Shown here piece by piece: positions 1 through 42,748 of a stretch of 64,000 nucleotides of DNA. Source of the stretch: Candidatus Omnitrophota bacterium (GTDB lineage Bacteria > Omnitrophota > Gorgyraeia > Gygaellales > Profunditerraquicolaceae); assembly GCA_028716965.1 (NCBI GenBank), contig JAQUOV010000006.1:23282-87281 (forward strand), written 5' to 3'. Every line of letters starts with the position of its first letter. Position 1 is the first letter of the stretch. Below the pieces are notes generated by a model. It had not been told where the DNA came from. It was given only the letters and a program-made list of their open reading frames with translations, and did no database searches. The translations under genes were made by a program, and so were the position numbers.

Positions 1-757
1 AGCCGTGGATATATGCCGCGTATTTGGCAGCTTTAAAAGCATCTAATCCTTGAGCCAGGAATGCCCCTGTAATTCCGCTAAGCACATCTCCGCTGCCGGC
101 AGTTGCCATCCCGGGGTTCCCTGTCCGGTTTATATAAAAACCTTTTAACCCATCGGTAACAATGCTTTTGTGTCCTTTAAGAATAATTATACTATTATAA
201 TATTTTGCTGACTTTTTAGCAATCAATTTTCTGTTATTCTTTATAATATCCGTGCTTACGCCAAACAGCCTGGACATCTCCTTTTGGTGCGGAGTTAAAA
301 TAAGTTCGCCCTGATGAGCCTTAAGTATCTCCGGGCAATTATTAAGGGCATTAATCGCATCGGCGTCTACGACTTTCGGGCAGGTTGTTTTACGCATAAT
401 CTTCTTCACCAACGCATAAGTTGATTTATTTCTGCCAAGGCCGGGTCCGATTATCAAAACGTCGGTATTTTTAAGCAGGCCGGATATCCTGGCAAAAGCT
501 TTTAAGCTTAACGTGCCTTCGCTGGTTTCCGCTAAAGGAAAGGTTATCAGTTCTTTTGGCTTAGACCTGATTAACGCTAAATTGATACTTTCAGGTATCC
601 CTAACGTCACCACCCCGGCTCCTGAGCGCAGGGCTGCCTCAGCGCAAAGCAAGGCAGCTCCAGAAAACCTGCTTGAGCCGGCTAAAATCAGGATGCGCCC
701 GTAGTCTCCTTTATGAGAATCAGCTTTTCTTCGTAACAACCGCGCTGGCAAGCGCAT
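1..757 (-). CDS. nnrD: ADP-dependent (S)-NAD(P)H-hydrate dehydratase, YjeF C-terminal domain only; 3' end runs off the window
   Basis: Manual reverse-strand translation from ATG at 755-757 gives MRLPARLLRRKADSHKGDYGRILILAGS..GAALLCAEAALRSGAGVVTLGIPES...GNPGMATAGSGDVLSGITGAFLAQG. These are typical YjeF_C/carbohydrate-kinase-like motifs. The frame is open to position 1. It is absent from the ORF track because it is truncated, and it overlaps the acpS 3' end by about 38 nt. Confidence 0.7.
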   Translation of the reverse strand, partial: MRLPARLLRRKADSHKGDYGRILILAGSSRFSGAALLCAEAALRSGAGVVTLGIPESINLALIRSKPKELITFPLAETSEGTLSLKAFARISGLLKNTDVLIIGPGLGRNKSTYALVKKIMRKTTCPKVVDADAINALNNCPEILKAHQGELILTPHQKEMSRLFGVSTDIIKNNRKLIAKKSAKYYNSIIILKGHKSIVTDGLKGFYINRTGNPGMATAGSGDVLSGITGAFLAQGLDAFKAAKYAAYIHG

Positions 758-1079
758 AAGTTTTAACATGTGAGATTGAAATGCAGACGTTGATAAAATC
801 CCCCTTACCATTTAAAAATGAACAGATGGGCTTGCCCGCCCGGTCATTATTTATCTGGATATCCTGCCAGGAAAGCGAACTGTCTCCGGCCGCTTTAAAA
901 ATCGCTTCTTTAGCGGCGAACCTGCCGGCTAAATGCTGATAAAAAGAATTCTTTTTTCTGGCATTTTTGAGTTCAGCATCAGTAAAAATACGCTTCAGGA
1001 AATCATCCCCCCACTTTTCAACTGCAGAGCGGATACGCCGTACTTCGGTTATATCTACCCCTGTTCCGATGAAGGTCAT
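720..1079 (-). CDS. acpS: holo-[acyl-carrier-protein] synthase
   Basis: 119 aa. The N-terminus (GTGVDITEVRRI) and FAAKEAIFKA motif fit the 4'-phosphopantetheinyl transferase AcpS family. The typical pdxJ-acpS arrangement is present. Confidence 0.85.
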   Translation of the reverse strand: MTFIGTGVDITEVRRIRSAVEKWGDDFLKRIFTDAELKNARKKNSFYQHLAGRFAAKEAIFKAAGDSSLSWQDIQINNDRAGKPICSFLNGKGDFINVCISISHVKTYALASAVVTKKS

Positions 1080-1789
1080 TTAATTAACTGGCGCATTTGT
1101 CTTACCGCCTTATATAATCCTACATATAACGCCTTGCAAATAATGGAATAACCGATATTCAGCTCTTCTATTCCTTTAAGTTCGGCAATCTGCCGGACAT
1201 TTGCATAATCCAGGCCGTGCCCGGCGTTAACAATTAATCCCTGTAGACAGGCGTAATCCATAGCCTGCCGTATTTGGTCAAAAAATGTTTCTTTTTGCTT
1301 GATACTCCTGGCATCAGCATAACGGCCGGTATGTATCTCAATGATCCGGGCACCGATTTTACCTGCGGCATCAATTTGTGTTTTATCGGGGTCAATAAAC
1401 AGGCTTGCACGGATACCGCATCTCTGAAGTTTAAGCACAGCAGCAGAGATGCCTCTCAAATTACCCGCTACGTTTAATCCCCCTTCGGTAGTTAACTCTT
1501 TCCTGTGCTCGGGCACCAGCGTAGCCTGATAAGGCCTTATCTTACAGGCGATCTTCACGATCTCCGGCGAAATAGACATCTCCAGATTAAGCCTGGTCTT
1601 GATACTCCGGCGCAGGCGCCTGACATCTTCATCCTGGATATGCCTGCGGTCCTCTCTTAAATGCGCGACTATACTGTCAGCCCCTGCCTCTTCGCATAGA
1701 AATGCCGCATAAACAGGGTCAGGCAGTTTTCCCCTGCGCGCCTGTCGTAATGTAGCCACATGGTCAATGTTTACACCTAATTTAGGCAT
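1076..1789 (-). CDS. pdxJ: pyridoxine 5'-phosphate synthase
   Basis: 237 aa. It starts MPKLGVNIDHVATLRQARR and contains EDRRHI and NAGHGL motifs characteristic of PdxJ. Confidence 0.9.
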   Translation of the reverse strand: MPKLGVNIDHVATLRQARRGKLPDPVYAAFLCEEAGADSIVAHLREDRRHIQDEDVRRLRRSIKTRLNLEMSISPEIVKIACKIRPYQATLVPEHRKELTTEGGLNVAGNLRGISAAVLKLQRCGIRASLFIDPDKTQIDAAGKIGARIIEIHTGRYADARSIKQKETFFDQIRQAMDYACLQGLIVNAGHGLDYANVRQIAELKGIEELNIGYSIICKALYVGLYKAVRQMRQLIK

Positions 1790-1848
1790 CTCTAACTTAA
1801 AACCTTTTATCTCAAGAATCTTTTAACAACCAGTCCATGAATATAAAA

Positions 1849-3066
1849 TCAAGGTTCTGTATGGAAGGGGTCTCTTATAGCGCTGTATATCTTCAAAGCC
1901 TGGCTTACCTCTTTTATGTCGTGTACACGCACTATATTTGCGCCGCGTTCGGCAGCCATCACGCAGGCTGCTACAGTGCCGGCGGTCCTTTGCGTGGGAT
2001 TTGTTTTTAGGACCTTGCCGATAAACGATTTTCGGCCGGGGCCTATAAGTATAGGCTTGCCCAGGATTTTAAAATCCGCCAGCCTGTTTATAATTTCAAG
2101 GTTTTGCCCGGGCATTTTTCCAAATCCGATCCCCGGGTCTATAATTATCTTCTCGGGCATTATGCCGTAAGCTTCAGCGCAGTCAACGGCGTTCTTTAAC
2201 CAAAAGATGATATCTTCAATCAATGATTTATACGCGATCCTCTCCTGCATATCCACCGGTTTACCGAGCATATGCATGATGACCACCGCGGCCTTGCACT
2301 TTGCGGCTGCCTTAATCATGCGTTTATCCCTTAAGCCGGAAATATCGTTAACTATCTGTGCCCCGTTTTCAAGGGCAGCCATGGCTACCTGCGGTTTAGT
2401 AGTATCTATAGAAATAGGAGCGGTTATATTTTTTACCAGTTTCTTCAGGACAGGCAAAACACGCTTCAACTCTTCTTTGACGGTAATACTTCTGGCGCCA
2501 GGCCGGCTGGATTCTCCTCCCAGGTCAATAATATCAGCTCCGTCTGCAAGCATTGTTTCCGCTTTTTCTAAAGCCAGGCCGGGATAATCATGAGAGCTAA
2601 CATTATACAGGCCGTCCCCGCTGAATGAATCCGGTGTTAGATTAATAACACCCATAATGCGAGGCCTGCCTTTAAACCTTAAAGATCCTTTTTTTAATGG
2701 TAATATAAAATTACTTTTGGTATATTTCTTTATGTTTTCATTCAGTTCGCCTGCAAGCCTGCTTAAACCGAATGGCTGAAGTCTTAATTTACGGATAAGT
2801 GATTGGATTTGGCAGGGCTGTCCGATGATAAGGCATGTGGAATTTCTGGTTTTACCGGTAAGAGTGCCGCGGGAGACCGCAACATCACCGCCTAATGAAA
2901 GCATCTCCTGCTTTAATATATTAGCGGCAATGTTAGATACTGCTTCTAAACGGACCAAAAAAGTAACGGTTTTAGGCAGCATGATCTTGATCCCATAGGG
3001 ATCTACGCCGATACCGCGCATGACCCTTTTTACTTCGCCCTCGCCGCTAAAACTAAAGATACGCAT
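1849..3066 (-). CDS. folP: dihydropteroate synthase with a roughly 130-aa N-terminal extension of unknown function
   Basis: The C-terminal 270 aa carry the DHPS pterin-binding signature (MGVINLTPDSFSGDG, DIIDLGGESSRPGA, VNDISG, IIDPGIGFGK). Residues 1-130 have no DHPS similarity that I can recognise. Confidence 0.85.
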   Translation of the reverse strand: MRIFSFSGEGEVKRVMRGIGVDPYGIKIMLPKTVTFLVRLEAVSNIAANILKQEMLSLGGDVAVSRGTLTGKTRNSTCLIIGQPCQIQSLIRKLRLQPFGLSRLAGELNENIKKYTKSNFILPLKKGSLRFKGRPRIMGVINLTPDSFSGDGLYNVSSHDYPGLALEKAETMLADGADIIDLGGESSRPGARSITVKEELKRVLPVLKKLVKNITAPISIDTTKPQVAMAALENGAQIVNDISGLRDKRMIKAAAKCKAAVVIMHMLGKPVDMQERIAYKSLIEDIIFWLKNAVDCAEAYGIMPEKIIIDPGIGFGKMPGQNLEIINRLADFKILGKPILIGPGRKSFIGKVLKTNPTQRTAGTVAACVMAAERGANIVRVHDIKEVSQALKIYSAIRDPFHTEP

Positions 3067-3073
3067 TTATCTT

Positions 3074-4948
3074 TTAAACAATGTCCCCCTTCTGTATTCC
3101 AAGTATTTTTTTAACCTCTTCTCCGCTTAAAACCTCTTTTGTCAAGAGGGTGTCGGAAAGAAGTTTTAGTTTATCCTGGTTACCCCTCAATAGATCCAGT
3201 GCTTTCCCATAGGCGTGATCAATAATCTTTTTTACCTCTTCGTCTATAATCCTGGCGGTCTGTTCACTGTAATTCTTTTCTTCCATAATATCACGGCCCA
3301 GGAATACCAATCCTTCCCGCTTGCCTAAAGTAAGGTTCCCCAGTGTTTCAGACATACCGAATTGGGTAACCATACGTCGGGCCATAACCGTAGCTACCTC
3401 TAAGTCGTTTTGTGCCCCGGTAGTTACTTCACTTAAACTTATTTCTTCCGAGGCCCTTCCCCCGAGTATCATCGTAATTTCCGCCAACAGTTCTTTCTTA
3501 GTCCAATAATGCCTGTCTTCCAGGGGAGGAGTAAAAGTATAGCCGCCGGACAACCCGCGCGGAATAATGGAAACTTTTTTCAAAGGGTTGACTTCGGGTA
3601 ATAGCAGAGAAAGCAGGGCATGTCCTGATTCATGCAAGGCGGTGATCTCTTTTTCTTTCTTGGAGATTATATGGCTTTTCTTTTCTGGTCCCATCAATAC
3701 CCTCTCTACCGATTTGTCAAAATCAATCTCTTCTACCGCTTCTTTGTTATTGCGCGCTGCCATGAGCGCCGCCTCATTGCATAGATTAGCAAGGTCCGCA
3801 CCGGAAAACCCCGGCGTCTGGCTGGCCACTGATTTTAAATCAACGGTCAAAGCAAGCTTGATTTTACGGGTGTGCACTTTAAGTATCTCTTCACGCCCTT
3901 TGATATCCGGAAGGTTGACGATAATAGTACGGTCAAATCTTCCCGGCCTAAGAAGCGCCGGGTCCAAAGTATCCGGCCGGTTGGTAGCTGCGATAAGTAT
4001 CAAACCCTGCTGGGCATCAAAACCATCCATTTCAACCAAAAGCTGATTAAGGGTCTGTTCACGCTCATCGTTTCCTCCACCGATGCCGGAAAAACGCAGG
4101 CGGCCAACAGCATCAATCTCATCAATAAAGATTATTGCCCCCTTACCCTCAATCTTGCCGGCTTTACGCCCCTGTTCAAACAAGTCTCTTACGCGGCTTG
4201 CTCCCACACCCACAAACATCTCCACAAAGTTAGATCCGGAAATGCTGAAAAATGGCACCCCGGCTTCTCCTGCTACCGCACGTGCGATCAGCGTCTTTCC
4301 GCATCCCGGGGAACCGATCAAAAGCACACCTTTGGGAATTTTCCCTCCAAGACGCTGAAACTTTTTAGGGTCTTTAAGGAACTCGATTACCTCTTTTAAC
4401 TCTTCCTTTGCCTCATCCACACCGGCAACGTCGTTAAAGGTAGCTTTTTCGTTATCACTTTGGATTTTAGATTTAACTTTTCCAAAGCTCATAATCCTGC
4501 TTCCCAGCTGTTCACCCCTGGCCGCCATCATCCACCAGAAGAAGATCAGCAGTAGTATGGGGCCCAGGTTAAAAAGCAATGAGATCCAGAATGTACGTGC
4601 CGGTTTTACCTCAAAATTTTTAAGGTTCTGGCGCATAAGCGAAAGCATCTCCGGGTCGTTTTCGGGAAGGTTAACAAAAAATTTTGAATTATCCGAGAAT
4701 TCCCCCTGCAGAATAATCTCCGTTTTAGTAGCCTGTTTTATGCTTTCAGGATTGTCTCTTAATATGCGGAAAAACTGGCTATACGGAATCTCTTTAGGGA
4801 TCCCGGTTATCGGAATGTTGTTAATGGTGTTGACTAGCATGATGAACAAAAAAATTATCAACAGCCAGCCAAGAGGTGAACGTTTGAATAGATTATTTTT
4901 GTTTATTTTAGGCTTATTTTGTATAGGCATTTGATTCTCCCGGTTCAA
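3074..4948 (-). CDS. ftsH: ATP-dependent zinc metalloprotease FtsH
   Basis: 624 aa. An N-terminal TM region is followed by an AAA+ domain with Walker A GPPGCGKT-like (GSPGCGKT) and DEIDA motifs, then an HESGH zinc protease motif. It sits in the conserved tilS-ftsH-folP neighbourhood. Confidence 0.95.
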
Positions 4949-5043
4949 AGAAACCGCTTTTGACGGTAACTAAAAAACTTTTAAAAATAAATCAGATAAA
5001 TATTATATACTTAAAAAGATGTAAAATCAAGTATTTTACGGAT

Positions 5044-6006
5044 TTAACGCCTGTAAAATCGCATGGTTTTACGGGTTTTTTCAACCGAAATCCCTTTAGG
5101 CAGGTCAACAATAGAGCCGGTTGGCCGGTTATGTAATAAGTCTTCCAGTTCTTTAATATGCTGAAAACCTATCCTGCGGGTATCTCCCTGGATACAGGCA
5201 ATGCTTTGTCTGATCGCCAGCCTTGATATTGCGGGATGCAGCCTTTTGATTGCGCCTATTTTAAGCCGCAGTCTGTTTCCTTTCAACCAGTTCTTTGCAA
5301 CCTGGTCCAGGTACTCATAATCATAAGATACACTTTCGGCCAGGTTAGCTAAAAGCTCAACGATATTATAGTTATACCTCTTTTTAAGCAAAGGCATGAG
5401 ATTATGCCGTATCTTATTACGGAAAAATACCTCTTCCTTGTTAGTAGGGTCAATGCGCGGCCGGATCTTTCTACGCTTCAAGAAATCTTCAATTCTCCTA
5501 CGGCTTGTTTCTAAAAGCGGCCGGATAAAGATAACGCCATCAATTTTGCGTTTCACGGATATTCCGGATAGCCCTGATAATCCGGTCCCTCTCAAAATGC
5601 GCATGAGTATAGTTTCTGCCTGGTCATCAAGGTTATGCCCCAAAGCGACTTTATCCGCTTTAATTCTCTTGGCAGTACGAACGAAGAAATCTAACCTTGC
5701 CTGCCTGCATAGTTCTTCAAGAGAACCTTTTTTCTCCTTCCTTATGGAATCCAGTCTTATAGTAGTTATGGGTACCCCAAGCCTTTTGGCCCAGCTTCCC
5801 ACAAAAAGCGCATCGCGCTGAGAACCTTCGCGTAAACCATGGTCTACATGCGCAATATGTAAACTTAACCCCAGTTTAGATTTGAGATTAAATAGCTGCA
5901 ATAACAGAGACAGGGAATCCGGCCCGCCTGAAACAGCTACCAGGATTTTATCCTGTTTTTGAATTAACGCGTATTTCTTGATCGTATCCAGAAAATTGTT
6001 CGGCAT
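5044..6006 (-). CDS. tilS: tRNA(Ile)-lysidine synthetase
   Basis: 320 aa. PP-loop SGGPDS motif near the N-terminus (VAVSGGPDSLSLL). It lies upstream of ftsH as in many bacteria. Confidence 0.85.
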   Translation of the reverse strand: MPNNFLDTIKKYALIQKQDKILVAVSGGPDSLSLLLQLFNLKSKLGLSLHIAHVDHGLREGSQRDALFVGSWAKRLGVPITTIRLDSIRKEKKGSLEELCRQARLDFFVRTAKRIKADKVALGHNLDDQAETILMRILRGTGLSGLSGISVKRKIDGVIFIRPLLETSRRRIEDFLKRRKIRPRIDPTNKEEVFFRNKIRHNLMPLLKKRYNYNIVELLANLAESVSYDYEYLDQVAKNWLKGNRLRLKIGAIKRLHPAISRLAIRQSIACIQGDTRRIGFQHIKELEDLLHNRPTGSIVDLPKGISVEKTRKTMRFYRR

Positions 6007-6095
6007 GTAGTTATTCTAACATAAAGATTATAAAACTTATATACAGATTTTATCAGCTCCCCGTAAACTCAAAAACATCCTCATTGCATAAAATA

Positions 6096-6124
6096 TTGAC
6101 TTTTTTGGCAATAAATAGTAAATT
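6096..6124 (+). promoter_or_regulatory. candidate sigma70-type promoter (TTGACT-17 nt-TAAATT) driving the flippase gene, possibly giving a leaderless or very short-leader mRNA
   Basis: TTGACT at 6096-6101, a 17-nt spacer, TAAATT at 6119-6124, and ATG at 6131. It lies in the divergent tilS/flippase intergenic region. Confidence 0.3.
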
Positions 6125-6130
6125 AATGCC

Positions 6131-7405
6131 ATGTCCGCACGGATAGTTACACACAAAGAAAGAAAAATCGTCTTTAAGAATTTCCTTTCCCTTACCACCC
6201 TTCAGACCGTTAACTATCTTTTGCCCCTGGTTGTCCTGCCGTATCTTGTAAGGGTGATCGGGATTGAAAAGTTCGGCTTAATTGCCTTTGCGCAAAGTTT
6301 GGTTCAATATTTCATGATCCTTACGGATTACGGGTTTAGCCTGTCGGCAACCAGGAAGATATCACTATGCAAAGATTACCAAAACCAGACAAGCGCCATA
6401 TTTTCATCCGTAATGACGGTAAAACTGCTGCTTGCGGCCTTGAGCTTCCTGATTTTATGCATTCTTATATATTTTGTCCCGAGGTTCAGGAACGACTGGC
6501 TGGTTTATATCTTAAGCTTCGGAGCGGTAGTCGGCAATACCCTCTTCCCGGTGTGGTTTTTCCAGGGTAAAGAAAAAATGAGCTATATAACGCTGATCAA
6601 TGTAATCGGCGGCCTGGCTTACGCGGTATGCATTTTTATTTTTATAAAAGGCCCTAAAGATTACCTCTTGCTTCCGATATTAAGCTCTTTATTATTTTTG
6701 ATCAGCGGTTTATTGGGCCTTTATATTGCTTTCAGCAAATTCAAGTTGGAATTTATCCTTCAGAAATATATCGATATAAAAACCGAGTTGAAAACCGGTT
6801 GGGATATCTTTATCTCTACCGTTTCCATAAATGCCTATACCACTACGCGTATCTTCGCCGTAGGCCTGCTTACCAACAACGCCATTACCGGGTATTTCTC
6901 CCTTGCCGATAGAATCGCTAATTTTATCCAGACCTTCCCCATGGATTCTTTTTCCCGCGCCGTATTCCCCAGGATAAGCAAGGTTTTCGCAAGGAATAAG
7001 AAGAGGGCGCTGGCAATAATGCGCAGGATCCAGTTCGGCATTACCTCAGGTTTTGTAATAAGCCTGCCCATTGCTTATTTTATTGCCCCCTGGATTATCA
7101 GTTTTGCCTGCGGAAGCGTGAACGAAGAGGCAGTACTTATATTAAGGCTGCTGCTTATAGCTGTGTTTTTCGTAGGAGCTAATGCCTTCAGGGTCCAATT
7201 CCTGCTTGTCGCCGGTAAACCTGATTTCTACGCAAAGATCCACGTGACTGCGGCAATTATCGGTTCCCCCCTTATATTCCTGATGATAAAGAGGTTTTCT
7301 TATCCTGGGGCGGCGTTGGCTACGGTAATGATTGAAGCAGGGGTATTTACTATTACCTGGATCACTATTAACAGGCTGGCGCGGGAAATTCTAAAGAATA
7401 AATAA
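6131..7405 (+). CDS. oligosaccharide/polysaccharide flippase family protein (MOP superfamily, Wzx-like)
   Basis: 424 aa with 12 or more predicted hydrophobic helices. The N-terminal NFLSLTTLQTVNYLLPLVVLPYLVRVIG is typical of polysaccharide biosynthesis/Wzx-type transporters. Confidence 0.7.
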   Translation: MSARIVTHKERKIVFKNFLSLTTLQTVNYLLPLVVLPYLVRVIGIEKFGLIAFAQSLVQYFMILTDYGFSLSATRKISLCKDYQNQTSAIFSSVMTVKLLLAALSFLILCILIYFVPRFRNDWLVYILSFGAVVGNTLFPVWFFQGKEKMSYITLINVIGGLAYAVCIFIFIKGPKDYLLLPILSSLLFLISGLLGLYIAFSKFKLEFILQKYIDIKTELKTGWDIFISTVSINAYTTTRIFAVGLLTNNAITGYFSLADRIANFIQTFPMDSFSRAVFPRISKVFARNKKRALAIMRRIQFGITSGFVISLPIAYFIAPWIISFACGSVNEEAVLILRLLLIAVFFVGANAFRVQFLLVAGKPDFYAKIHVTAAIIGSPLIFLMIKRFSYPGAALATVMIEAGVFTITWITINRLAREILKNK

Positions 7406-7444
7406 GCTCATAAAACCAATGAGCAATTAAAGACAGCCCTGAAA

Positions 7445-7601
7445 TTCGCAGGACTGCCTCTCTTGTCTTTGGTGGCGGAGAGTGGCCCTGCTCAGCTATC
7501 GCTTCGCAGGACTGCCTCTCTTGTCTTTGGTGGCGGAGAGTGGCCCTGCTCAGCTATCGCTTCGCAGGACTGCCTCTCTTGTCTTTGGTGGCGGAGAGTG
7601 G
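7445..7601. repeat. tandem array (about 2.7 copies) of a 58-bp repeat; each unit ends with the 16 nt 3'-terminal segment (T-stem 3' strand, acceptor 3' strand, CCA) of the adjacent tRNA
   Basis: The unit ttcgcaggactgcctctcttgtctttggtggcggagagtggccctgctcagctatcgc occurs at 7445-7502 and 7503-7560 and partially at 7561-7601, where it merges into the tRNA. The copies are directly abutting with no spacers. Confidence 0.9.
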
Positions 7602-7662
7602 ATTTAAACCACCGACCAAGCGGGTATGAGCCGCGTGCTCTATCAGGCTGAGCTACTCCGCC
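7586..7662 (-). tRNA. tRNA with CAT anticodon (Met elongator or Ile2/lysidine type), CCA encoded, with an atypical D-loop and T-loop
   Basis: The reverse complement folds as a cloverleaf: GGCGGAG TA GCTC AGCCTGATA GAGC A CGCGG CTCATAC CCGCT TGGTC GGTGG TTTAAAT CCACT CTCCGCC A CCA. It has a G1:C72 pair, so it is not initiator-like. The D-loop lacks the conserved GG and the T-loop has T instead of C56. Confidence 0.6.
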
Positions 7663-7769
7663 AAAATCAATTTAAATTATCAAGTGTTATTACGCGGCTT
7701 GTTTTAAGTATCAAGCCGCCTTATCTATCCTATCGGTGTAGTCCTCCCGAAACTGCAAGCTTGCGAGGA

Positions 7770-7804
7770 GAGCCGCGTGCTCTATCAGGCTGAGCTACTC
7801 CGCC
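7770..7804 (-). pseudogene. isolated copy of the 5' half (positions 1-34, up to the anticodon first base) of the tRNA at 7586-7662
   Basis: 35 nt at 7770-7804 are identical to 7628-7662, and the upstream A-run is also copied. The sequence diverges exactly inside the anticodon loop. Hairpins (gcggcttg..caagccgc; gcaagcttgc palindrome) lie between the two copies. Confidence 0.8.
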
Positions 7805-7823
7805 AAAAACAACTTTTCAAATA

Positions 7824-8612
7824 TTATTTCTTCCTGTATGCCTCTAAATATGAATCACAATAAATATTCTTGTCCAAGATAAGCTCTGCCGTAATCAATG
7901 TATCAATAAGCTCTCTATCCTTGGGGTCAAGTATAGCAGAATCCAGGCCATATGCAACTGCCATTGTCAAAAAAGTGCGGTTAATCAGGCTGCGCAGATG
8001 AGTGCCCTGGGAAACATTACTCAATCCTAAAGTAGTCTTGGGACCGGGTTCGGAAATAATCTTAAATTCGGCGATAGACTCCAGGATATCCCTCATTTGC
8101 GCCTGGGCTACATTAACCGGTAAAACTATGGGATCCAGATACAGGTCTTCGACGGGAAAACATGCTTTTAGGCAATTGTCCACGATAGCTGCCGCCAGTT
8201 CAAGGCGCTGGTCCTTGTTTTGCGGGATGCCCTTTGAACTAATAGTAATACCGATCAGCTTAGATTCGTATTTTTTTGCCAAAGGGATGAGCGCTTCAAG
8301 CTTTTCCGCATCGGCTGTTGTAGAATTTATAATTGTTTTATTCCTGGAAGCCTTCAAGCCCTCTTCAATAACGGCAGGCTTGCTTGAATCCAAACAGAGC
8401 GGCTTATCGGTTACCTCCTGGATTGCCTCAACTAACCAAGGCATATCAACTTGCGGCTGCCCGGAAGCCGGTCCGCAGTTGATATCTAAAGCGTCTGCCC
8501 CGCAGGCAATTTGAGTTAAAGCGCAATTTTGTATTTCTTTTTTATTGCGCTCTTTGATTGCCGAGCCTATGTTAGCGTACATACCGTTAATCAACTCACC
8601 GATAATGAACAT
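7824..8612 (-). CDS. acsE: methyltetrahydrofolate:corrinoid/iron-sulfur protein Co-methyltransferase (pterin-binding, DHPS-like fold)
   Basis: 262 aa. The N-terminal MFIIGELINGM resembles the AcsE/MeTr family start, and the size matches. It is adjacent to the CFeSP subunits. Confidence 0.8.
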   Translation of the reverse strand: MFIIGELINGMYANIGSAIKERNKKEIQNCALTQIACGADALDINCGPASGQPQVDMPWLVEAIQEVTDKPLCLDSSKPAVIEEGLKASRNKTIINSTTADAEKLEALIPLAKKYESKLIGITISSKGIPQNKDQRLELAAAIVDNCLKACFPVEDLYLDPIVLPVNVAQAQMRDILESIAEFKIISEPGPKTTLGLSNVSQGTHLRSLINRTFLTMAVAYGLDSAILDPKDRELIDTLITAELILDKNIYCDSYLEAYRKK

Positions 8613-8636
8613 AAGGTATTCCTTTTAAAAAGTACG

Positions 8637-9572
8637 TTATTTCTTAAAAAGCGTATTGATATAAGCAAGCACCTTCTCAGCTGCTTTCGGATGCCGCATA
8701 ACCAAAAGGTCGGCGCCGGACTGTATCAGGCTGGTGGCGGTAATTACTTCCCAGATAACCCCGTGATCAGGACCGGATTTGGCTTCTTTTGTCCTCCATG
8801 CCTCCTGCCCCGTGAAACAAATAAACGGAGAAGCCAGTGTCTTATCGCCTGATAAAGCGGCAAGCCTGGCCCTCTCCATAATGGAATAGGCATATTCAAG
8901 CCCGTAACCCAATGCCCCGATGGTGGGGTTAATTACGATCCGCTCAAGGCTTAAGCCCATATCCGAAATCAATATATTTAATTGCTTGGCGATATTGATG
9001 TCTATCGGGCTTTCGGCGATAATATTGTGGCCGTCAGCTAATACACTGGCAACCAGGGTCTTATAATTATCCTGGATTGCGCAGCCGATCAAACAGCGTT
9101 CTGCTTTAGCCGCTTCAGAACAGGCAGGTAAAATCAGGTTATCTTTGGCATCATCGCCGCAGCCTATGATTATTAACGGTACATTTACTTTACTTAAAAG
9201 GGTAGAAATAAATTTTGCCGCTTCCTGGGGGCCTTTATTTCCGTAATCAGGGTGGCTGCCCTGCATTCTTACACAAAGTAGTTTTGCTTTAAATTCCCTT
9301 ACGCATTTATCAGCCCAGGCAAAGGGATCATGCAAAACATCTCCGTATGCGCAGACAAGCCCTTCATCCCAATCCTGCGGAGGAGTATCCCAAACTTCAA
9401 AAGCAACCGCGGGCAAATTAGGTATATTGCCCTCCTTGAATAACAAGGGCAGGCTGCTTTCTCCGCCTATCTTTACCGTATTGCCGCGGGAACCCCCCTC
9501 TTCTTTATTTGCTCCGATACTCAGGGTGTAAATTGCACCCGCCCATTTTTCAAGCACTAATTGTGTTTCCAT
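8637..9572 (-). CDS. acsD: corrinoid iron-sulfur protein small subunit (acetyl-CoA decarbonylase/synthase delta subunit)
   Basis: 311 aa, the size expected for the TIM-barrel CFeSP small subunit. It lies between acsE and cooC, as in acs operons. The call rests mainly on context and size. Confidence 0.65.
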   Translation of the reverse strand: METQLVLEKWAGAIYTLSIGANKEEGGSRGNTVKIGGESSLPLLFKEGNIPNLPAVAFEVWDTPPQDWDEGLVCAYGDVLHDPFAWADKCVREFKAKLLCVRMQGSHPDYGNKGPQEAAKFISTLLSKVNVPLIIIGCGDDAKDNLILPACSEAAKAERCLIGCAIQDNYKTLVASVLADGHNIIAESPIDINIAKQLNILISDMGLSLERIVINPTIGALGYGLEYAYSIMERARLAALSGDKTLASPFICFTGQEAWRTKEAKSGPDHGVIWEVITATSLIQSGADLLVMRHPKAAEKVLAYINTLFKK

Positions 9573-10309
9573 ATTTTCTCCCCCAGTGAATTAAGCGCCG
9601 TCAAAATGGGCGCATTTTTATCCAGAGTAAAAATCGAGGCACCTTTTAAACTTAATTCCCCGATTGAAGGGTCTTCCGGTAAAAAACCAAGATACTCCAA
9701 TCCTGTTTCTTCGATTTTTCTCTTCTCTATATCCTCATTAAAACGGTTTACCAATAGAAAGCTTTTTTTTATTTTAAGTTTCAATTGCGTTGAGAGCTCC
9801 TTTATCCTGCGTGCTGATTTTAATCCGATACTTGAGGCATCCGATACCACTATAAGCAGATCGGCAAAACAGCTGGTGCGCCTGGACAAATGCTCTAATC
9901 CCGCCTCATTGTCAATGATTATATAATCATAATCTTTGCTCAATTTGGAGACAACCGACCTTAAAACGTTATTCACGTAACAATAACATCCCGGCCCTTC
10001 GGGTTTACCCATACTCAAGATATCAAACCCGTCTTCTTCCTGGATCGCTGACTGCACCTGGTATTCTATAAAACGTTCTTTCGGCATGCCGGTAGGCACC
10101 TTTTCCGGGTTTGCGGATATATCGTCTAAAATCGCCCCCACGTCGCATCCGGGCTTAAAACCTAGAATCTCACCCAGATTACTATTGGGATCGGCGTCAA
10201 TAGCCAAAACCGAACCAATCTTCTTTTCCCGGATCCTGCGGATAATCAAAGATGCGATCGTAGTCTTCCCCATGCCGCCTTTACCGGCCATCGCGATAAT
10301 CCTGCCCAT
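9557..10309 (-). CDS. cooC: CO dehydrogenase/acetyl-CoA synthase nickel-insertion ATPase (CooC/AcsF, MinD/ParA family)
   Basis: 250 aa with a deviant Walker A motif (AMAGKGGMGKTT). It sits in the acs cluster. Confidence 0.8.
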   Translation of the reverse strand: MGRIIAMAGKGGMGKTTIASLIIRRIREKKIGSVLAIDADPNSNLGEILGFKPGCDVGAILDDISANPEKVPTGMPKERFIEYQVQSAIQEEDGFDILSMGKPEGPGCYCYVNNVLRSVVSKLSKDYDYIIIDNEAGLEHLSRRTSCFADLLIVVSDASSIGLKSARRIKELSTQLKLKIKKSFLLVNRFNEDIEKRKIEETGLEYLGFLPEDPSIGELSLKGASIFTLDKNAPILTALNSLGEKIWKHN

Positions 10310-12235
10310 CTAAAATTTCACCGTAGGGAATTTTGTTAAATCCGTATGAGGGAAAAATAACGCCTGGCTGTATTCATCCATATACCCCGGGTCAACAGAT
10401 AATTCAAAATAGGTGATCCTAGAAGCAATATTATTGGCCATGGTCATGGCCTGGTTTGATAAAAGTATCTGGCTGGCCCCCGCAAGCGCGCTGTTGCCGA
10501 TAAATGAAAATTTAGCAAGCCCTAAATCAGGCAGTAAGCCGATCTTAACCGCCTTCTCAATATCCAGGTAGGTGCCAAATCCGCCTGCGATAAATATCCT
10601 GGATATCTGCGTAAAGCACAGGCCAAGGTGCTTAACTAAAATAGCGGTAGCGGAATATATCGCTGCCTTTGAGCGTTTTAGATTTTCAATATCCGCTTCA
10701 TTAATTACGATATCCGATGAAATATCGGTTTCTTCCTTAAAACAGACCACGAATTCTTTTCCGGTATCTGTTTGACGGATACGCCTGCCCGCGGCTTTGA
10801 TCTTGCCGCCTTTGTCAATTATGCCGGCCTCCAGCATTGAGCTGAGTAGATCAATGTATCCCGAACCGCAGATCCCCTTCGGTTTTTTATCACCGATACT
10901 TGAATATTTGACCTCAAAGCCGGTTTTATCAATACTTATTTTCTGAATAGCCCCGTTGCTGGCGCGCATACCGCTGGTTACGCCGCTGCCCTCAAAGGCC
11001 GGTCCGGCTGAAGCTGCGCAGGCAACCAGGAAATCCTTATTCCCTAAAACAATCTCCCCGTTTGTTCCGATATCAATTAATATGCAAAGTTCATCCTTTT
11101 GATATATGCCGCTTGAGAGCACCCCTGCGGTAGTATCCCCTCCCACGTAACTGGAGACTCCCGGCACGCAGGAAAGCAAACCCCGGGGGTTAATACTTAT
11201 CCCGGCCTCCGCCGCGCGCAAAACAGGCAGAAAATTTGCCGTAGGCACATAGGGGTCTTTGCGGATGTGCGCCGGGTCAACGCTTAAAAGCAGATGGATC
11301 ATTGTGGTGTTCCCCGAACAAACAACGCAGTTAACATCATTTAAATCAATATTATGCTCAAGGATCAATTCACGGATTATCTGGTTCATTGTATTGCAAA
11401 CAGCCTCATGCAGCCTTTCCAGACCGTCGCTTTGCCCGGCATAGACTATGCGCGTAATTACATCGTTTCCAAAAGTAGCCTGTTGGTTATAGGTTGCCTT
11501 GGTCCCAAGGATTTTTTTTGAATTCAGGTCTACCAACTGTCCGGAGATAGTGGTTGTGCCGACATCAAAACAAAAACCGAAGTTTTTATCTGTCGTGTCC
11601 CCGGGTTCAACCAGGACGATCTCTACGGTATCGTTGCGCTTGCCTAACGTAACAGTAACCTTCCATTCGGAATCACGCAATAGTTCACCCAGCTGCCGGA
11701 TATTGAATAAGCCGGTCTGGATTACGGGAAAATCCCCAAGCTGGCGCAAAGCGCGGTATATCCGCTCCAGGTCTCCCGCGTTATCATCAAGCGTAGGCGT
11801 AGGCAACTCCAGGTATAATTTTGTGGCAAAGGGGGAATGTTTAAAAAGGCCTTCTTTGAATTTTGCATTCACCGGCTGGATATCCTCAGCTTTTGAATAA
11901 AGGCTGCCTAAACGCTCCCCTACCTGCGAAGGAGTAAGGCTATCAAAGCTAAGCCGGGAACTTTCAGGGATCTCTACCTCTAAATCGCTATGGATATTCG
12001 TAAGACAACTAAGGTATATATTGTGTTTTCTCTCTTCTGCCGTAATTATCCCGTTAGGCTGGGTACTTACCTGCCCCTTCTTTAGAATAACCTTGCATCT
12101 TCCACAGACACCGTCACCTCCGCAGACAGAGTTGACATATACCCCCGCGGAGATGGCCGCAGAAAGGATAGTCCTGTCTTTTTCCGCAAGGACAGATTTA
12201 TTATCCGGCATGAATGTGACTTTGAATTTTTGCAT
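10310..12235 (-). CDS. reductive activator of corrinoid protein (RACo): N-terminal [2Fe-2S] ferredoxin plus an ASKHA ATPase domain
   Basis: 641 aa. N-terminal plant-type ferredoxin cysteine pattern (CGGDGVCGRCKV) is followed by a large ASKHA-like domain. It sits between cooC and acsC. Confidence 0.8.
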   Translation of the reverse strand: MQKFKVTFMPDNKSVLAEKDRTILSAAISAGVYVNSVCGGDGVCGRCKVILKKGQVSTQPNGIITAEERKHNIYLSCLTNIHSDLEVEIPESSRLSFDSLTPSQVGERLGSLYSKAEDIQPVNAKFKEGLFKHSPFATKLYLELPTPTLDDNAGDLERIYRALRQLGDFPVIQTGLFNIRQLGELLRDSEWKVTVTLGKRNDTVEIVLVEPGDTTDKNFGFCFDVGTTTISGQLVDLNSKKILGTKATYNQQATFGNDVITRIVYAGQSDGLERLHEAVCNTMNQIIRELILEHNIDLNDVNCVVCSGNTTMIHLLLSVDPAHIRKDPYVPTANFLPVLRAAEAGISINPRGLLSCVPGVSSYVGGDTTAGVLSSGIYQKDELCILIDIGTNGEIVLGNKDFLVACAASAGPAFEGSGVTSGMRASNGAIQKISIDKTGFEVKYSSIGDKKPKGICGSGYIDLLSSMLEAGIIDKGGKIKAAGRRIRQTDTGKEFVVCFKEETDISSDIVINEADIENLKRSKAAIYSATAILVKHLGLCFTQISRIFIAGGFGTYLDIEKAVKIGLLPDLGLAKFSFIGNSALAGASQILLSNQAMTMANNIASRITYFELSVDPGYMDEYSQALFFPHTDLTKFPTVKF

Positions 12236-40763: not shown

Positions 40764-40884
40764 GATTTCCTCCTTAAGTTTTAACCAGGTTCAAAACTTC
40801 GCGTAAGACACAAAGCTTTGAACTTCTTCTTTAAACTTTCTTAATAATTTCATTTAATAATAGCTGAATCGTAATTTAAGCGCA

Positions 40885-41291
40885 GGCAGAATAAGCCGGG
40901 TTCTGTCTTGATGCGAATTTGCGCATCGGTTAGTGGCTATTCCTCTCAATCGGCGCGTTGCCGCGCTGACTTTAGCAGTTTACCCGAGATTATCTCCCGC
41001 CAAAGCGGGAAGCGCGCCGGATGAACGCTCATCTCCTATTCTACATTGCTCCACGCAGAGATTGCCGCGTTTCACATTACCCCGCGCCTTTTATTCATTC
41101 TTTTTTGAATAACTAAAAGGTGCGGGGCTACTCGTCTCTGTGGCTCTCCCGTCAAAAAATGACGGGCCCGCCGCAATTTCTTGGCGGGGATCCTCCGTAT
41201 ATTCACATATACGGGACGGGGATTACCCGTTGCGTTATCCTCCGGAGCCCGGACTTTCCTCCCTACTCACATAGGGCAGCCACATTCTGCC
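40885..41291 (-). ncRNA. rnpB: RNase P RNA (bacterial type A), about 407 nt
   Basis: The minus strand reads GGCAGAAU..GGGAGGAAAGUCCGGGCUCC near the 5' end (the universal P4 strand). It ends with a P18-like hairpin followed by ACAGAACCCGGCUUAUUCUGCC. The P1 (GGCAGAAU/AUUCUGCC) and P2 (GUGGCU/AGCCAC) pairings are present. Confidence 0.8.
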
Positions 41292-41307
41292 TGCTCATTA
41301 TCAAAGA

Positions 41308-42483: not shown

Positions 42484-42557
42484 TGGGCGATAGAGGACTC
42501 GAACCTCTGACATCTACAATGTGAATGTAGCGCTCTAACCAACTGAGCCAATCGCCC
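42484..42557 (-). tRNA. tRNA-Val (anticodon CAC)
   Basis: The reverse complement is GGGCGAT TG GCTC AGTTGGTTA GAGC G CTACA TTCACAT TGTAG ATGTC AGAGG TTCGAGT CCTCT ATCGCCC A. It has a canonical cloverleaf, GG in the D-loop and a TTCGAGT T-loop. CCA is not encoded. Confidence 0.85.
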
Positions 42558-42674: not shown

Positions 42675-42748
42675 TGGGCCCACAGGGACTCGAACCCCGG
42701 ACCAATTGATTATGAGTCAACTGCTCTAACCGACTGAGCTATGGGCCC
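42675..42748 (-). tRNA. tRNA with CAT anticodon (elongator Met or Ile2/lysidine), canonical structure
   Basis: The reverse complement is GGGCCCA TA GCTC AGTCGGTTA GAGC A GTTGA CTCATAA TCAAT TGGTC CGGGG TTCGAGT CCCTG TGGGCCC A. It has a G1:C72 pair, so it is not initiator-like. CCA is not encoded. Confidence 0.85.

Follow-up and report, generated by a model that had tools for sequence, protein, structure and literature searches.

Williams is said to have catalogued, in 2002, the attachment (att) sites that integrase-bearing islands and prophages use in tRNA genes, with reported sublocations in the anticodon loop, the T-loop and the 3' end. Integrons build cassette arrays with attC sites and the integrase IntI, and integrase-less attC clusters also exist; in Escherichia coli, the 3' external transcribed spacer 3'ETS(leuZ) is a functional tRNA trailer that acts as a small RNA sponge. 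Here we compare with these systems a locus in 64,000 nucleotides (nt) of DNA from a Candidatus Omnitrophota bacterium (hereafter the window, in which the region 7,406–7,823 was read directly), where an intact tRNA-Met(CAU) gene is followed by tandem hairpin units, or modules, each of which carries a partial copy of the tRNA end. We call such a copy inside a module (here, of tRNA nt 61–76) an echo. This locus belongs to a pattern that runs through the phylum and is undescribed; literature on Omnitrophota tRNA, on partial tRNA repeats and on homology-facilitated illegitimate recombination at tRNA genes gave us no account of it.

The locus resembles a tRNA attachment site in that the 3' segment of the tRNA is directly repeated behind an intact gene and that breakpoints fall in the anticodon loop and T-loop; at such sites, too, serial events stack repeats and a displaced copy can carry the sequence of a former allele. 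It differs in that no integrase was found, that the repeats lie 42–150 nt and not kilobases apart, that conserved, covarying hairpins abut each echo, that 5' echoes lie upstream and that whole tRNA genes, and not just their 3' part, are replaced or nested. Integron attC arrays likewise consist of short units in one orientation, with and without open reading frames (ORFs), that end in a common core, and their hairpin sites have a variable terminal loop (a resemblance only); here, however, we found neither the attC consensus core (RYYYAAC/GTTRRRY) nor IntI, a tRNA 3' end takes the place of the core, the echo varies in length and the arrays are tiny. Like 3'ETS(leuZ), the module is a conserved element directly after a tRNA and presumably co-transcribed with it, but 3'ETS(leuZ), unlike the Omnitrophota module, holds no copy of a tRNA end and is not tandemly amplified.

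Archaea and some algae have disrupted tRNA genes that are intron-containing, split or permuted, with a bulge-helix-bulge (BHB) motif (PMC3978253). The likeness lies in structured inserts that split the tRNA sequence at the anticodon loop or T-loop, and in tRNA pieces standing side by side. The Omnitrophota loci differ in their bacterial host, in always keeping an intact gene, next to which the pieces are redundant, and in placing the T-loop insert within a symmetric UUU/AAA internal loop; a BHB-type intron was rejected for these inserts, as by eye the unpaired UUU and AAA face each other without staggered bulges. Plastid genomes carry partial or multiplied tRNA genes at rearrangement endpoints, for example in a trnI-CAU triplication (PMC4122936) and in the bean plastome (PMC1940014). 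There, too, partial tRNA copies arise beside an intact gene by illegitimate or homology-facilitated recombination and a CAU tRNA is involved, but the setting is an organelle, for which neither a conserved hairpin module nor lineage-wide recurrence at one orthologous locus is known.

Tandem modules at the tRNA-Met 3' end

Downstream of the tRNA gene (Table 1), positions 7445–7601 form a tandem repeat with a period of 58 bp and 2.7 copies (100% matches, zero indels, score 314; Tandem Repeats Finder (TRF)). The 16-mer TGGTGGCGGAGAGTGG (reverse complement of CCACTCTCCGCCACCA) occurs exactly three times in the window, at 7470, 7528 and 7586, against 0.01 copies expected from dinucleotide shuffling, in which three copies were reached in 0 of 100 shuffles. 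The copy at 7586–7601, CCACTCTCCGCCACCA on the tRNA strand, is the true tRNA 3' end and comprises the T-stem 3' strand, the acceptor 3' strand, A73 and CCA; 42 nt separate neighbouring 16-nt repeats. An initial annotation of this DNA had described about 2.7 tandem 58-bp copies, each carrying the 3'-terminal 16 nt of the tRNA and anchored to its 3' end, and both the TRF result and the 16-mer search bear this out, with the repeats always in register with the real 3' end.

Read on the tRNA strand, the 58-nt unit begins with the linker AAGACAA, continues with the 43-nt stem-loop GAGAG-GCA-GTCCTGC-[GAAGCGATAGCTGA]-GCAGGGC-CA-CTCTC and closes with the tail CGCCACCA, its final 16 nt being the copy of tRNA nt 61–76. 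The unit folds at −25.7 kcal/mol (z = −4.2; RNA fold), and module 1 is matched at 7532–7578 with 61.3 bits by R1, a covariance model built from 18 distinct module units. After two identical modules the array ends in a truncated third, in which a 13-bp hairpin (7461–7429) is followed by UCUUUAAUU (fold −20.5 kcal/mol, z = −4.2). This hairpin and the sequence after it are a probable end of the tRNA transcription unit, and terminal hairpins homologous to it were found in three other loci (L043, L063 and L095). Perfect GC-rich hairpins number only seven in the 64 kb, none of them module-like, and we rejected the idea that the module represents a general terminator style of this genome. Within the window, both the 16-mer and the module are restricted to the tRNA-Met locus.

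Upstream of the gene, 46 nt at 7770–7815 match 7628–7673 with 96% identity (repeat search). This 5' echo breaks after C34, in the anticodon loop (canonical numbering), and lies 107 nt from the tRNA gene; the copy of tRNA nt 1–34 that the initial annotation had reported, breaking in that loop, is present without a mismatch. The upstream module as a whole spans 142 bp, made up of the copy of nt 1–34, two hairpins and the tRNA's own leader. Between echo and gene, hairpin P1 (7769–7742) is followed by a linker beginning CTACACCG (7741–7720), a second hairpin (7719–7694; GCGGCTTG/CAAGCCGC, with TTGATA in its loop) and an AT-rich leader (7693–7663), and the 84-nt insert folds at −26.5 kcal/mol (z = −3.2). 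The same architecture is found in L015, L031, L107 and L009, where P1 has changed in sequence and kept its pairing, and orthologous 5' echoes occur in L009, L015/L003, L031, L107, L082 and L014.

Two sequence habits recur in the tRNA fragments. The stretch GCTCA repeatedly appears as GCTTGA (window 7708–7717, and six other loci: L009, L014, L082, L130, L137 and L164). The change affects the D-arm (AGCTTGAG) as well as a remnant of the anticodon loop (GGCTTGATAC); in the window it gives rise to the hexamer TTGATA that occupies the loop of the hairpin preceding the tRNA. A promoter in that hairpin (TTGATA-16-TAATAA) stays speculation, as the consensus scan made no call. The mini-palindrome CCCTGCCTGCCGGCAGGCAGGG replaces the D-loop in upstream fragments (5' echoes of L009, L014, L036, L112, L122 and L168) and, in different genomes, also lies inside the T-stem of downstream fragments (3' echoes of L074 and L086).

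Recurrence across the phylum

Much of the phylum retains the gene order acsE-like methyltransferase, tRNA-Met, convergent flippase, which allows orthologous loci to be set side by side. Using the tRNA D-arm as a pattern, we scanned one genome per species and obtained at least 119 loci, nearly all from metagenome-assembled or single-amplified genomes (MAGs and SAGs) of Candidatus Omnitrophota. Genome loci are numbered L002–L120 and metagenome loci L121–L240, with the window in addition; both collections are lower bounds, and 2–14 kb of sequence around each tRNA was covered per locus.

An exact 10-nt 3' echo lies no more than 350 nt downstream of 59 of the 232 elongator-type tRNA-Met genes, and 24 of the 232 have an exact 12-nt 5' echo upstream. 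Exact echoes lie 48–1128 nt from the tRNA end, and echo lengths among relatives run from 7 to about 50 nt with varying breakpoints. Full echo modules, with a linker, a covarying hairpin and a tRNA 3'-end copy, are present at about a quarter of 230 related loci, often in tandem. With a motif extended to take in the T-loop end, echoes were found 39 times downstream on the tRNA strand, and neither upstream nor inverted, in 1.54 Mb. The R1 model gave 65 matches in 48 of 200 sources, all on the tRNA strand and 8–455 nt after an intact tRNA-Met, and no module motif or R1 match was found away from tRNA-Met in 1.38 Mb of loci. Neither a dispersed repeat (MITE, REP or PATE) nor a generic minisatellite agrees with this placement, as in the window and the loci searched the module stands only downstream of tRNA-Met and on its strand; both were discarded. 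Downstream echoes were found at only 2 of 33 other tRNAs (Fisher p = 0.014 relative to the 59 of 232 tRNA-Met genes) and an upstream echo at 1 of 33, the tRNAs being Gly and Thr. At these loci (L164 and L218, tRNA-Gly; L201, tRNA-Thr), about 130 nt of GC-rich hairpins separate the tRNA from a repeated piece of its 3' portion, or else a 5' fragment precedes the gene.

Several module types occur: the window type, a T-arm copy with a two-hairpin insert at the exact centre of the T-loop, and others in which the tRNA tail is used in a hairpin; related modules also contain GNRA and UUCG tetraloops. Tandem amplification has taken place independently in L018 (4 × 48 nt), L115 (2 × 52), L027 (2 × 70), L082 (2 × 121), L029 and L142, and upstream modules are repeated in L015/L003 and L107. 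Searched against Rfam 15 at permissive E-values, the window region and eight rich loci matched only tRNA, with all other hits at E ≥ 0.3 and far below gathering scores. IMG/VR had zero matches to the 3' end of the tRNA, to the spacer of the module, to a module pattern whose loop was left variable or to the second tRNA-Met allele.

With this recurrence in view, it is barely credible that the array in the window is a purely local accident or artefact, such as a slipped-strand minisatellite or a mis-assembled short repeat with no wider meaning. Its copies are perfectly identical, similar arrays contain scaffold gaps (L029, L043 and L048), and an independent Logan contig with an identical flippase gene (L001, SRR22315506; 1.9 kb and the sole match in an exact-protein look-up of the flippase) breaks at the repeat boundary, yet single modules occur in dozens of independent assemblies from different studies and assemblers, covary and are tied to the orthologous locus, and the upstream 5' echo is common to four relatives (L009, L015, L031 and L107). 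The Logan contig stops at window position 7474, 30 nt into the first repeat unit, which is a typical k-mer graph break at a repeat, and how many copies of a perfect 58-bp repeat there are cannot be read with certainty from a short-read assembly. For the acsE-like protein, a look-up of exact matches was empty.

Hairpin conservation and covariation

In an alignment of the 18 distinct units, 97.2% of cells are paired and 6 of 12 pairs have changes on both sides; the observed pairing score was reached in 0 of 500 shuffles, and no slid register came close. Compensatory changes fall in both helices of the hairpin, in which an unpaired spacer follows the paired basal arms and the terminal loop varies strongly (alignment A1), and the basal arm tracks the tRNA allele (GAGAG with CTCTC, GCGAC with GTCGC, GCGAG with CTCGC). 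One position is U·G in 14 of the 18 units and U-A in the rest; since U·G pairing works only on the tRNA-sense strand, the likely actor is RNA, or else that one strand of the DNA. In species pairs with 74–88% identity in the acsE-like protein, the module, loop included, is 92–98% identical, whereas the leader is only 56–80% identical and the 40 nt downstream 38–54% where they are unique DNA or 70–80% where they belong to another repeat unit. Conservation so far beyond that of the flanks is not the behaviour of a neutral scar and implies either selection or recent horizontal spread. Judging by these sequence features, the hairpin probably also works as RNA, most likely within the precursor of the tRNA, where it would serve as a trailer or in processing or termination; the modules would then be transcribed.

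These observations raise the possibility of a dedicated structured RNA, in which hairpin and tRNA-3'-end copy together would form a functional small RNA or cis element, co-transcribed with the tRNA and released by tRNA-processing enzymes. Its tRNA-like ...GCCACCA 3' tail would be needed, either as a decoy or substrate for a 3'-end-reading enzyme or as a protective or processing element, and tandem copies would be dosage variants. Such an RNA would account for a module that stays conserved, loop included, while linker and flanks drift, for the compensatory changes and the sense-strand U·G pair, for the exclusive use of the tRNA strand upstream of terminator-like hairpins, for the tetraloops and for the fold z-score of −4.2. 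We consider it rather unlikely all the same: Rfam holds no match, about three quarters of the loci have no module, close relatives among them (L169, L032, L028 and L054), and the many non-homologous module types have only the echo in common. The echo tail has, moreover, decayed in L077 and L014, the basal stem of L090 and L139 is disrupted by an echo from a foreign allele, and both the 5' echoes and the nested genes described below would go unexplained.

Replacement, nesting and cargo

Twenty-four of 97 downstream echoes, in 20 loci, carry the 3' strand of a tRNA-Met allele other than the resident one; the resident gene is self-consistent in these loci. In L090 and L139, the basal arm of the hairpin matches the resident gene and not the foreign echo, as expected if a new gene with its trailer had been joined onto an old 3' end. 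Elsewhere, a complete tRNA-Met with its own leader lies inside a broken one, the two parts of which flank it, either in the T-loop (L069, L074, L076 and L164) or in the anticodon loop (L008, L038 and L137). A 12-bp stem bridges the inner tRNA gene in L069, L137 is the same acsE–flippase locus as in the window, and the junctions of the nested cases are non-homologous on both sides. The crossover positions that the initial annotation had named, the anticodon loop and the T-arm, were confirmed as breakpoints.

T-loop inserts sit exactly between U56 and A57 in seven loci (L069, L074, L076, L164, L097, L040 and L068), and are built as TCCCGC-hairpin-GCGGGA, followed after a short joint by another stem, which sometimes encloses a complete tRNA-Met and its leader. 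For the anticodon-loop inserts after CTCATAC (junction CTCATAC/TTAAATGAG; L008 and L038), a group I intron was considered and rejected: Rfam gave no match, and a complete second tRNA follows in place of a 3' exon.

Orthologous loci differ in their occupancy. Clean versions were found in L169, with an intergenic region of 100 nt, L032 and L028, L054 is a further close relative without a module, and L047 is the empty counterpart of L018, with the same flanks. The relative closest by acsE (L009, 91% identity) has the 5' echo and P1 as in the window and a different trailer hairpin, whereas the trailer module of the more distant L107 (acsE 77%) is 98% identical to that of the window, a distribution that does not follow simple vertical descent. 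Cargo is rare and small, with 0.7–1.1 kb of ORFs between tRNA and echo in three loci: one encodes a lipoprotein with a PEGA domain (L154), another has two small membrane ORFs (L223) and the third has, about 45–790 nt after the tRNA, an AbiEii-like nucleotidyltransferase (182 aa) with a 65-aa ORF (L215). The last of these looks, from its predicted proteins, like a small toxin-antitoxin-like cassette, and is followed by the 3' half-tRNA of a different tRNA-Met allele.

We searched 4,536 ORFs (≥80 aa) from the window and 239 loci (1.6 Mb) with XerD, lambda Int and Hin (phmmer) and obtained no match at E ≤ 10, while an FtsH positive control was recovered in scores of loci. The earlier statement that the window encodes no integrase therefore holds, there being no Xer-, lambda-Int- or Hin-like ORF in it. 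The same annotation had read the locus as a repeatedly used or decayed attachment site. Its first half survives in part: recurrent insertion and replacement is evident from the 20 foreign-echo loci, the nested genes and the cargo, but a classical tyrosine-integrase att site is not supported, as shown by the lack of a recombinase match in 1.6 Mb around 240 loci, the 42 nt between repeats, the upstream 5' copy and the replacement of whole genes. Its second half would have the modules be attL/attR remnants of tRNA-integrating islands or prophages whose cargo and tyrosine integrase have since been deleted. A tRNA 3' end that recurs as direct repeats, breaks within the anticodon loop and T-loop, and the half-tRNA echo after the toxin-like cassette of L215 would all be expected from such elements, but the intervals measure only 48–1128 nt, remnants should decay and these modules are conserved and covarying, and neither upstream 5' echoes nor whole-tRNA replacement is made by elements of this kind; with no integrase in the loci searched and no IMG/VR match, we regard decayed att sites as quite improbable.

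Occupied and empty orthologous sites (L018 and L047) would also be produced by site-specific cassettes of an integron-like or IMEX-like kind, that is, hairpin sites ending in the tRNA 3' terminus and inserted serially by a recombinase encoded elsewhere, the window units being ORF-less cassettes. Arrays of heterogeneous modules that each end in the same core (L082, L115, L120 and L138), ORF-bearing units (L154, L223 and L215), strict orientation and the hairpin's make-up of basal arms that pair, a spacer that does not and a terminal loop that varies strongly agree with cassettes, as against echo lengths of 7 to about 50 nt with variable breakpoints, units that, read from sequence, have no attC-type GTTRRRY/RYYYAAC core, and whole-gene replacements and, in nested cases, double non-homologous junctions that one reciprocal crossover would hardly produce. 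The 1.6 Mb of flanks yielded no recombinase and viral contigs (IMG/VR) gave zero matches, and cassettes of this kind seem to us clearly unlikely.

Origin of the modules

We give about an even chance to an insertion and replacement hotspot at tRNA-Met, where displaced gene pieces persist and the array has grown by unequal recombination. In Omnitrophota, DNA with a complete tRNA-Met and hairpin-rich flanks would repeatedly have recombined into or onto the resident gene, with breakpoints in the loops of the cloverleaf (anticodon loop and T-loop) and at the T-stem/acceptor junction. Only products that keep one intact tRNA-Met would survive, the displaced 5' and 3' pieces remaining as echoes. The single-copy, essential tRNA-Met would act as a survival filter: that only arrangements with one intact gene are seen is what would be expected of a gene that is single-copy and essential, and because one intact gene is kept, the displaced pieces would gather on their proper sides and in their proper orientation. 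The 16-nt direct repeats would then drive unequal recombination or replication slippage, giving the perfect tandem array of the window, as direct repeats may also have done in the identical tandem units elsewhere.

The joining step could be homology-anchored or illegitimate recombination, with the phylum-wide identical tRNA as portable homology, or the work of an unlinked recombinase on hairpin-shaped sites. A classical integrase is unlikely, since our screen detected none, the distances are tiny and the exchange involves entire genes, not 3' parts; recombination of the homology-anchored or illegitimate kind agrees with a screen that returned no enzyme.

Several observations weigh against a replacement hotspot. 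Every echo in the window matches the resident tRNA, so that local duplication alone could explain this locus, and single-module genomes (L087, L107 and L015) do not have the second linker-hairpin expected from simple tandem duplication. That the hairpin is so strongly conserved, its loop as well, would be more natural for an element with a dedicated function than for a by-product of recombination, and the doubly non-homologous junctions of the nested cases are a poor fit to homology-anchored recombination. No enzyme was identified in the window and 239 loci by a recombinase screen that used three query proteins and 2–14 kb per locus. All comparison loci, finally, are metagenome-derived assemblies that were found by way of the tRNA sequence itself, and their counts are minima.

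Tentatively, and with more doubt than conviction, the loci may also be viewed as an undescribed Omnitrophota tRNA echo-module system, whose hairpin units, ending in the 3' terminus of the adjacent tRNA, would be inserted serially and would be either recombinase-orphan, integron-like cassettes or processed RNAs that mimic a tRNA 3' end. Its main target may be tRNA-Met, with occasional use of tRNA-Gly and tRNA-Thr, and in the cassette version it may sometimes carry a replacement tRNA gene or small cargo.

The tRNA-Met gene and its neighbours

The initial annotation had observed that the tRNA lacks the D-loop GG and the T-loop C56, and had suggested a non-functional or specialised molecule. Both departures are present in the sequence at 7662–7586 (D-loop AGCCUGAUA; T-loop UUUAAAU, with U56), but the suggestion built on them is not supported. 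ARAGORN calls the gene as tRNA-Met with anticodon CAT, and the Rfam tRNA model RF00005 gives it 59 bits, against a gathering score of 29. Identical or near-identical tRNA-Met genes occur in at least 119 genome loci and more than 110 species-level genomes. Among the matches listed, all 230 of 230 elongator-type copies combine a D-loop ...YCYGAU-A with a T-loop UUU[A/G]AAU and have A19:U56 in place of the tertiary pair G19:C56; that A19 always occurs together with U56 indicates a compensated tertiary pair. By its sequence, the window gene appears to be the standard elongator tRNA-Met of Candidatus Omnitrophota, and its G1:C72 pair and anticodon stem CGCGG argue against an initiator tRNA.

A link to the nearby tilS gene had also been drawn, on the ground that its substrate is a CAU tRNA. 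The acceptor pairs C3:G70 and G4:C69 of the window tRNA-Met are the inverse of the TilS identity pairs; TilS enzymes use G3:C70, C4:G69 and C5:G68 as identity elements (PMC11947777). All three are present in a second CAU tRNA of the window, which, on these pairs, is probably tRNA-Ile2 and the real substrate of the encoded TilS. The closeness of tilS to tRNA-Met is thus most likely coincidental, with the caveat that the TilS encoded here, a short protein of 320 aa, possibly does not recognise the acceptor stem at all.

The genes upstream share the strand of the tRNA and encode the acsE-like methyltransferase, CdhD, a CooC-type ATPase and RACo, and downstream of tRNA-Met the convergent flippase-type gene is followed by tilS and ftsH. 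The order ftsH–tilS–flippase/tRNA-Met–acsE-like–cdhD–cooC–RACo (window 1–12235) is kept over much of the phylum, at most loci. Elsewhere in the window, a bacterial class A RNase P RNA lies at 40878–41294 on the reverse strand (153 bits) and has large insertions relative to the consensus.

Table 1. Features of the tRNA-Met locus and related genes in the window
Feature	Position	Strand	Evidence and remarks
tilS, PP-loop ATP_bind_3 protein	5044–6006	−	
Polysaccharide-biosynthesis (flippase-type) gene, convergent on the tRNA; conserved downstream neighbour	6131–7405	+	Pfam PF01943; synteny
Terminator-like stem-loop with T-rich tail, between array and convergent flippase gene	7406–7424	−	Consensus scan; pattern match only
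Third module, truncated	7429–7469	−	7469–7445 are the first 25 nt of the module, then unique DNA
Trailer echo module 2, 100% identical to module 1	7470–7527	−	Echo 7485–7470; R1 match 7474–7520
Trailer echo module 1, 58 nt	7528–7585	−	TRF; 16-mer search; linker AAGACAA 7585–7579, hairpin 7578–7536, echo 7543–7528
tRNA-Met(CAU), elongator-type, intact, encoded CCA	7586–7662	−	ARAGORN; Rfam tRNA
Upstream module between 5' echo and tRNA	7663–7769	−	Fold; architecture shared with relatives
5' echo: tRNA nt 1–34 (7804–7770, zero mismatches) and 11-nt leader-like flank (7815–7805, 2 mismatches)	7770–7815	−	Repeat search
acsE-like pterin-binding methyltransferase gene; conserved upstream neighbour, defines the orthologous locus	7824–8612	−	Pfam PF00809; tblastn synteny, most loci
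Second CAU tRNA, anticodon loop CUCAUAA; adjoins tRNA-Val (42484–42557, −)	42675–42748	−	

Implications

As the locus belongs to an undescribed, phylum-wide pattern, it is worth following up. For annotators, the odd D-loop and T-loop of Omnitrophota tRNA-Met are the norm of the lineage and not a defect, partial tRNA hits are to be expected near tRNA-Met, and assemblies tend to break at such arrays. The conserved, covarying hairpin tied to tRNA-Met, listed in no RNA database, is a concrete target for transcript-end mapping. If replacement at tRNA-Met proves to be the origin of the modules, the most conserved short genes would serve as portable landing pads for DNA exchange without a visible integrase, in a phylum of ultra-small, uncultured bacteria, and the stack of displaced gene ends would be a readable record of past allele replacements.

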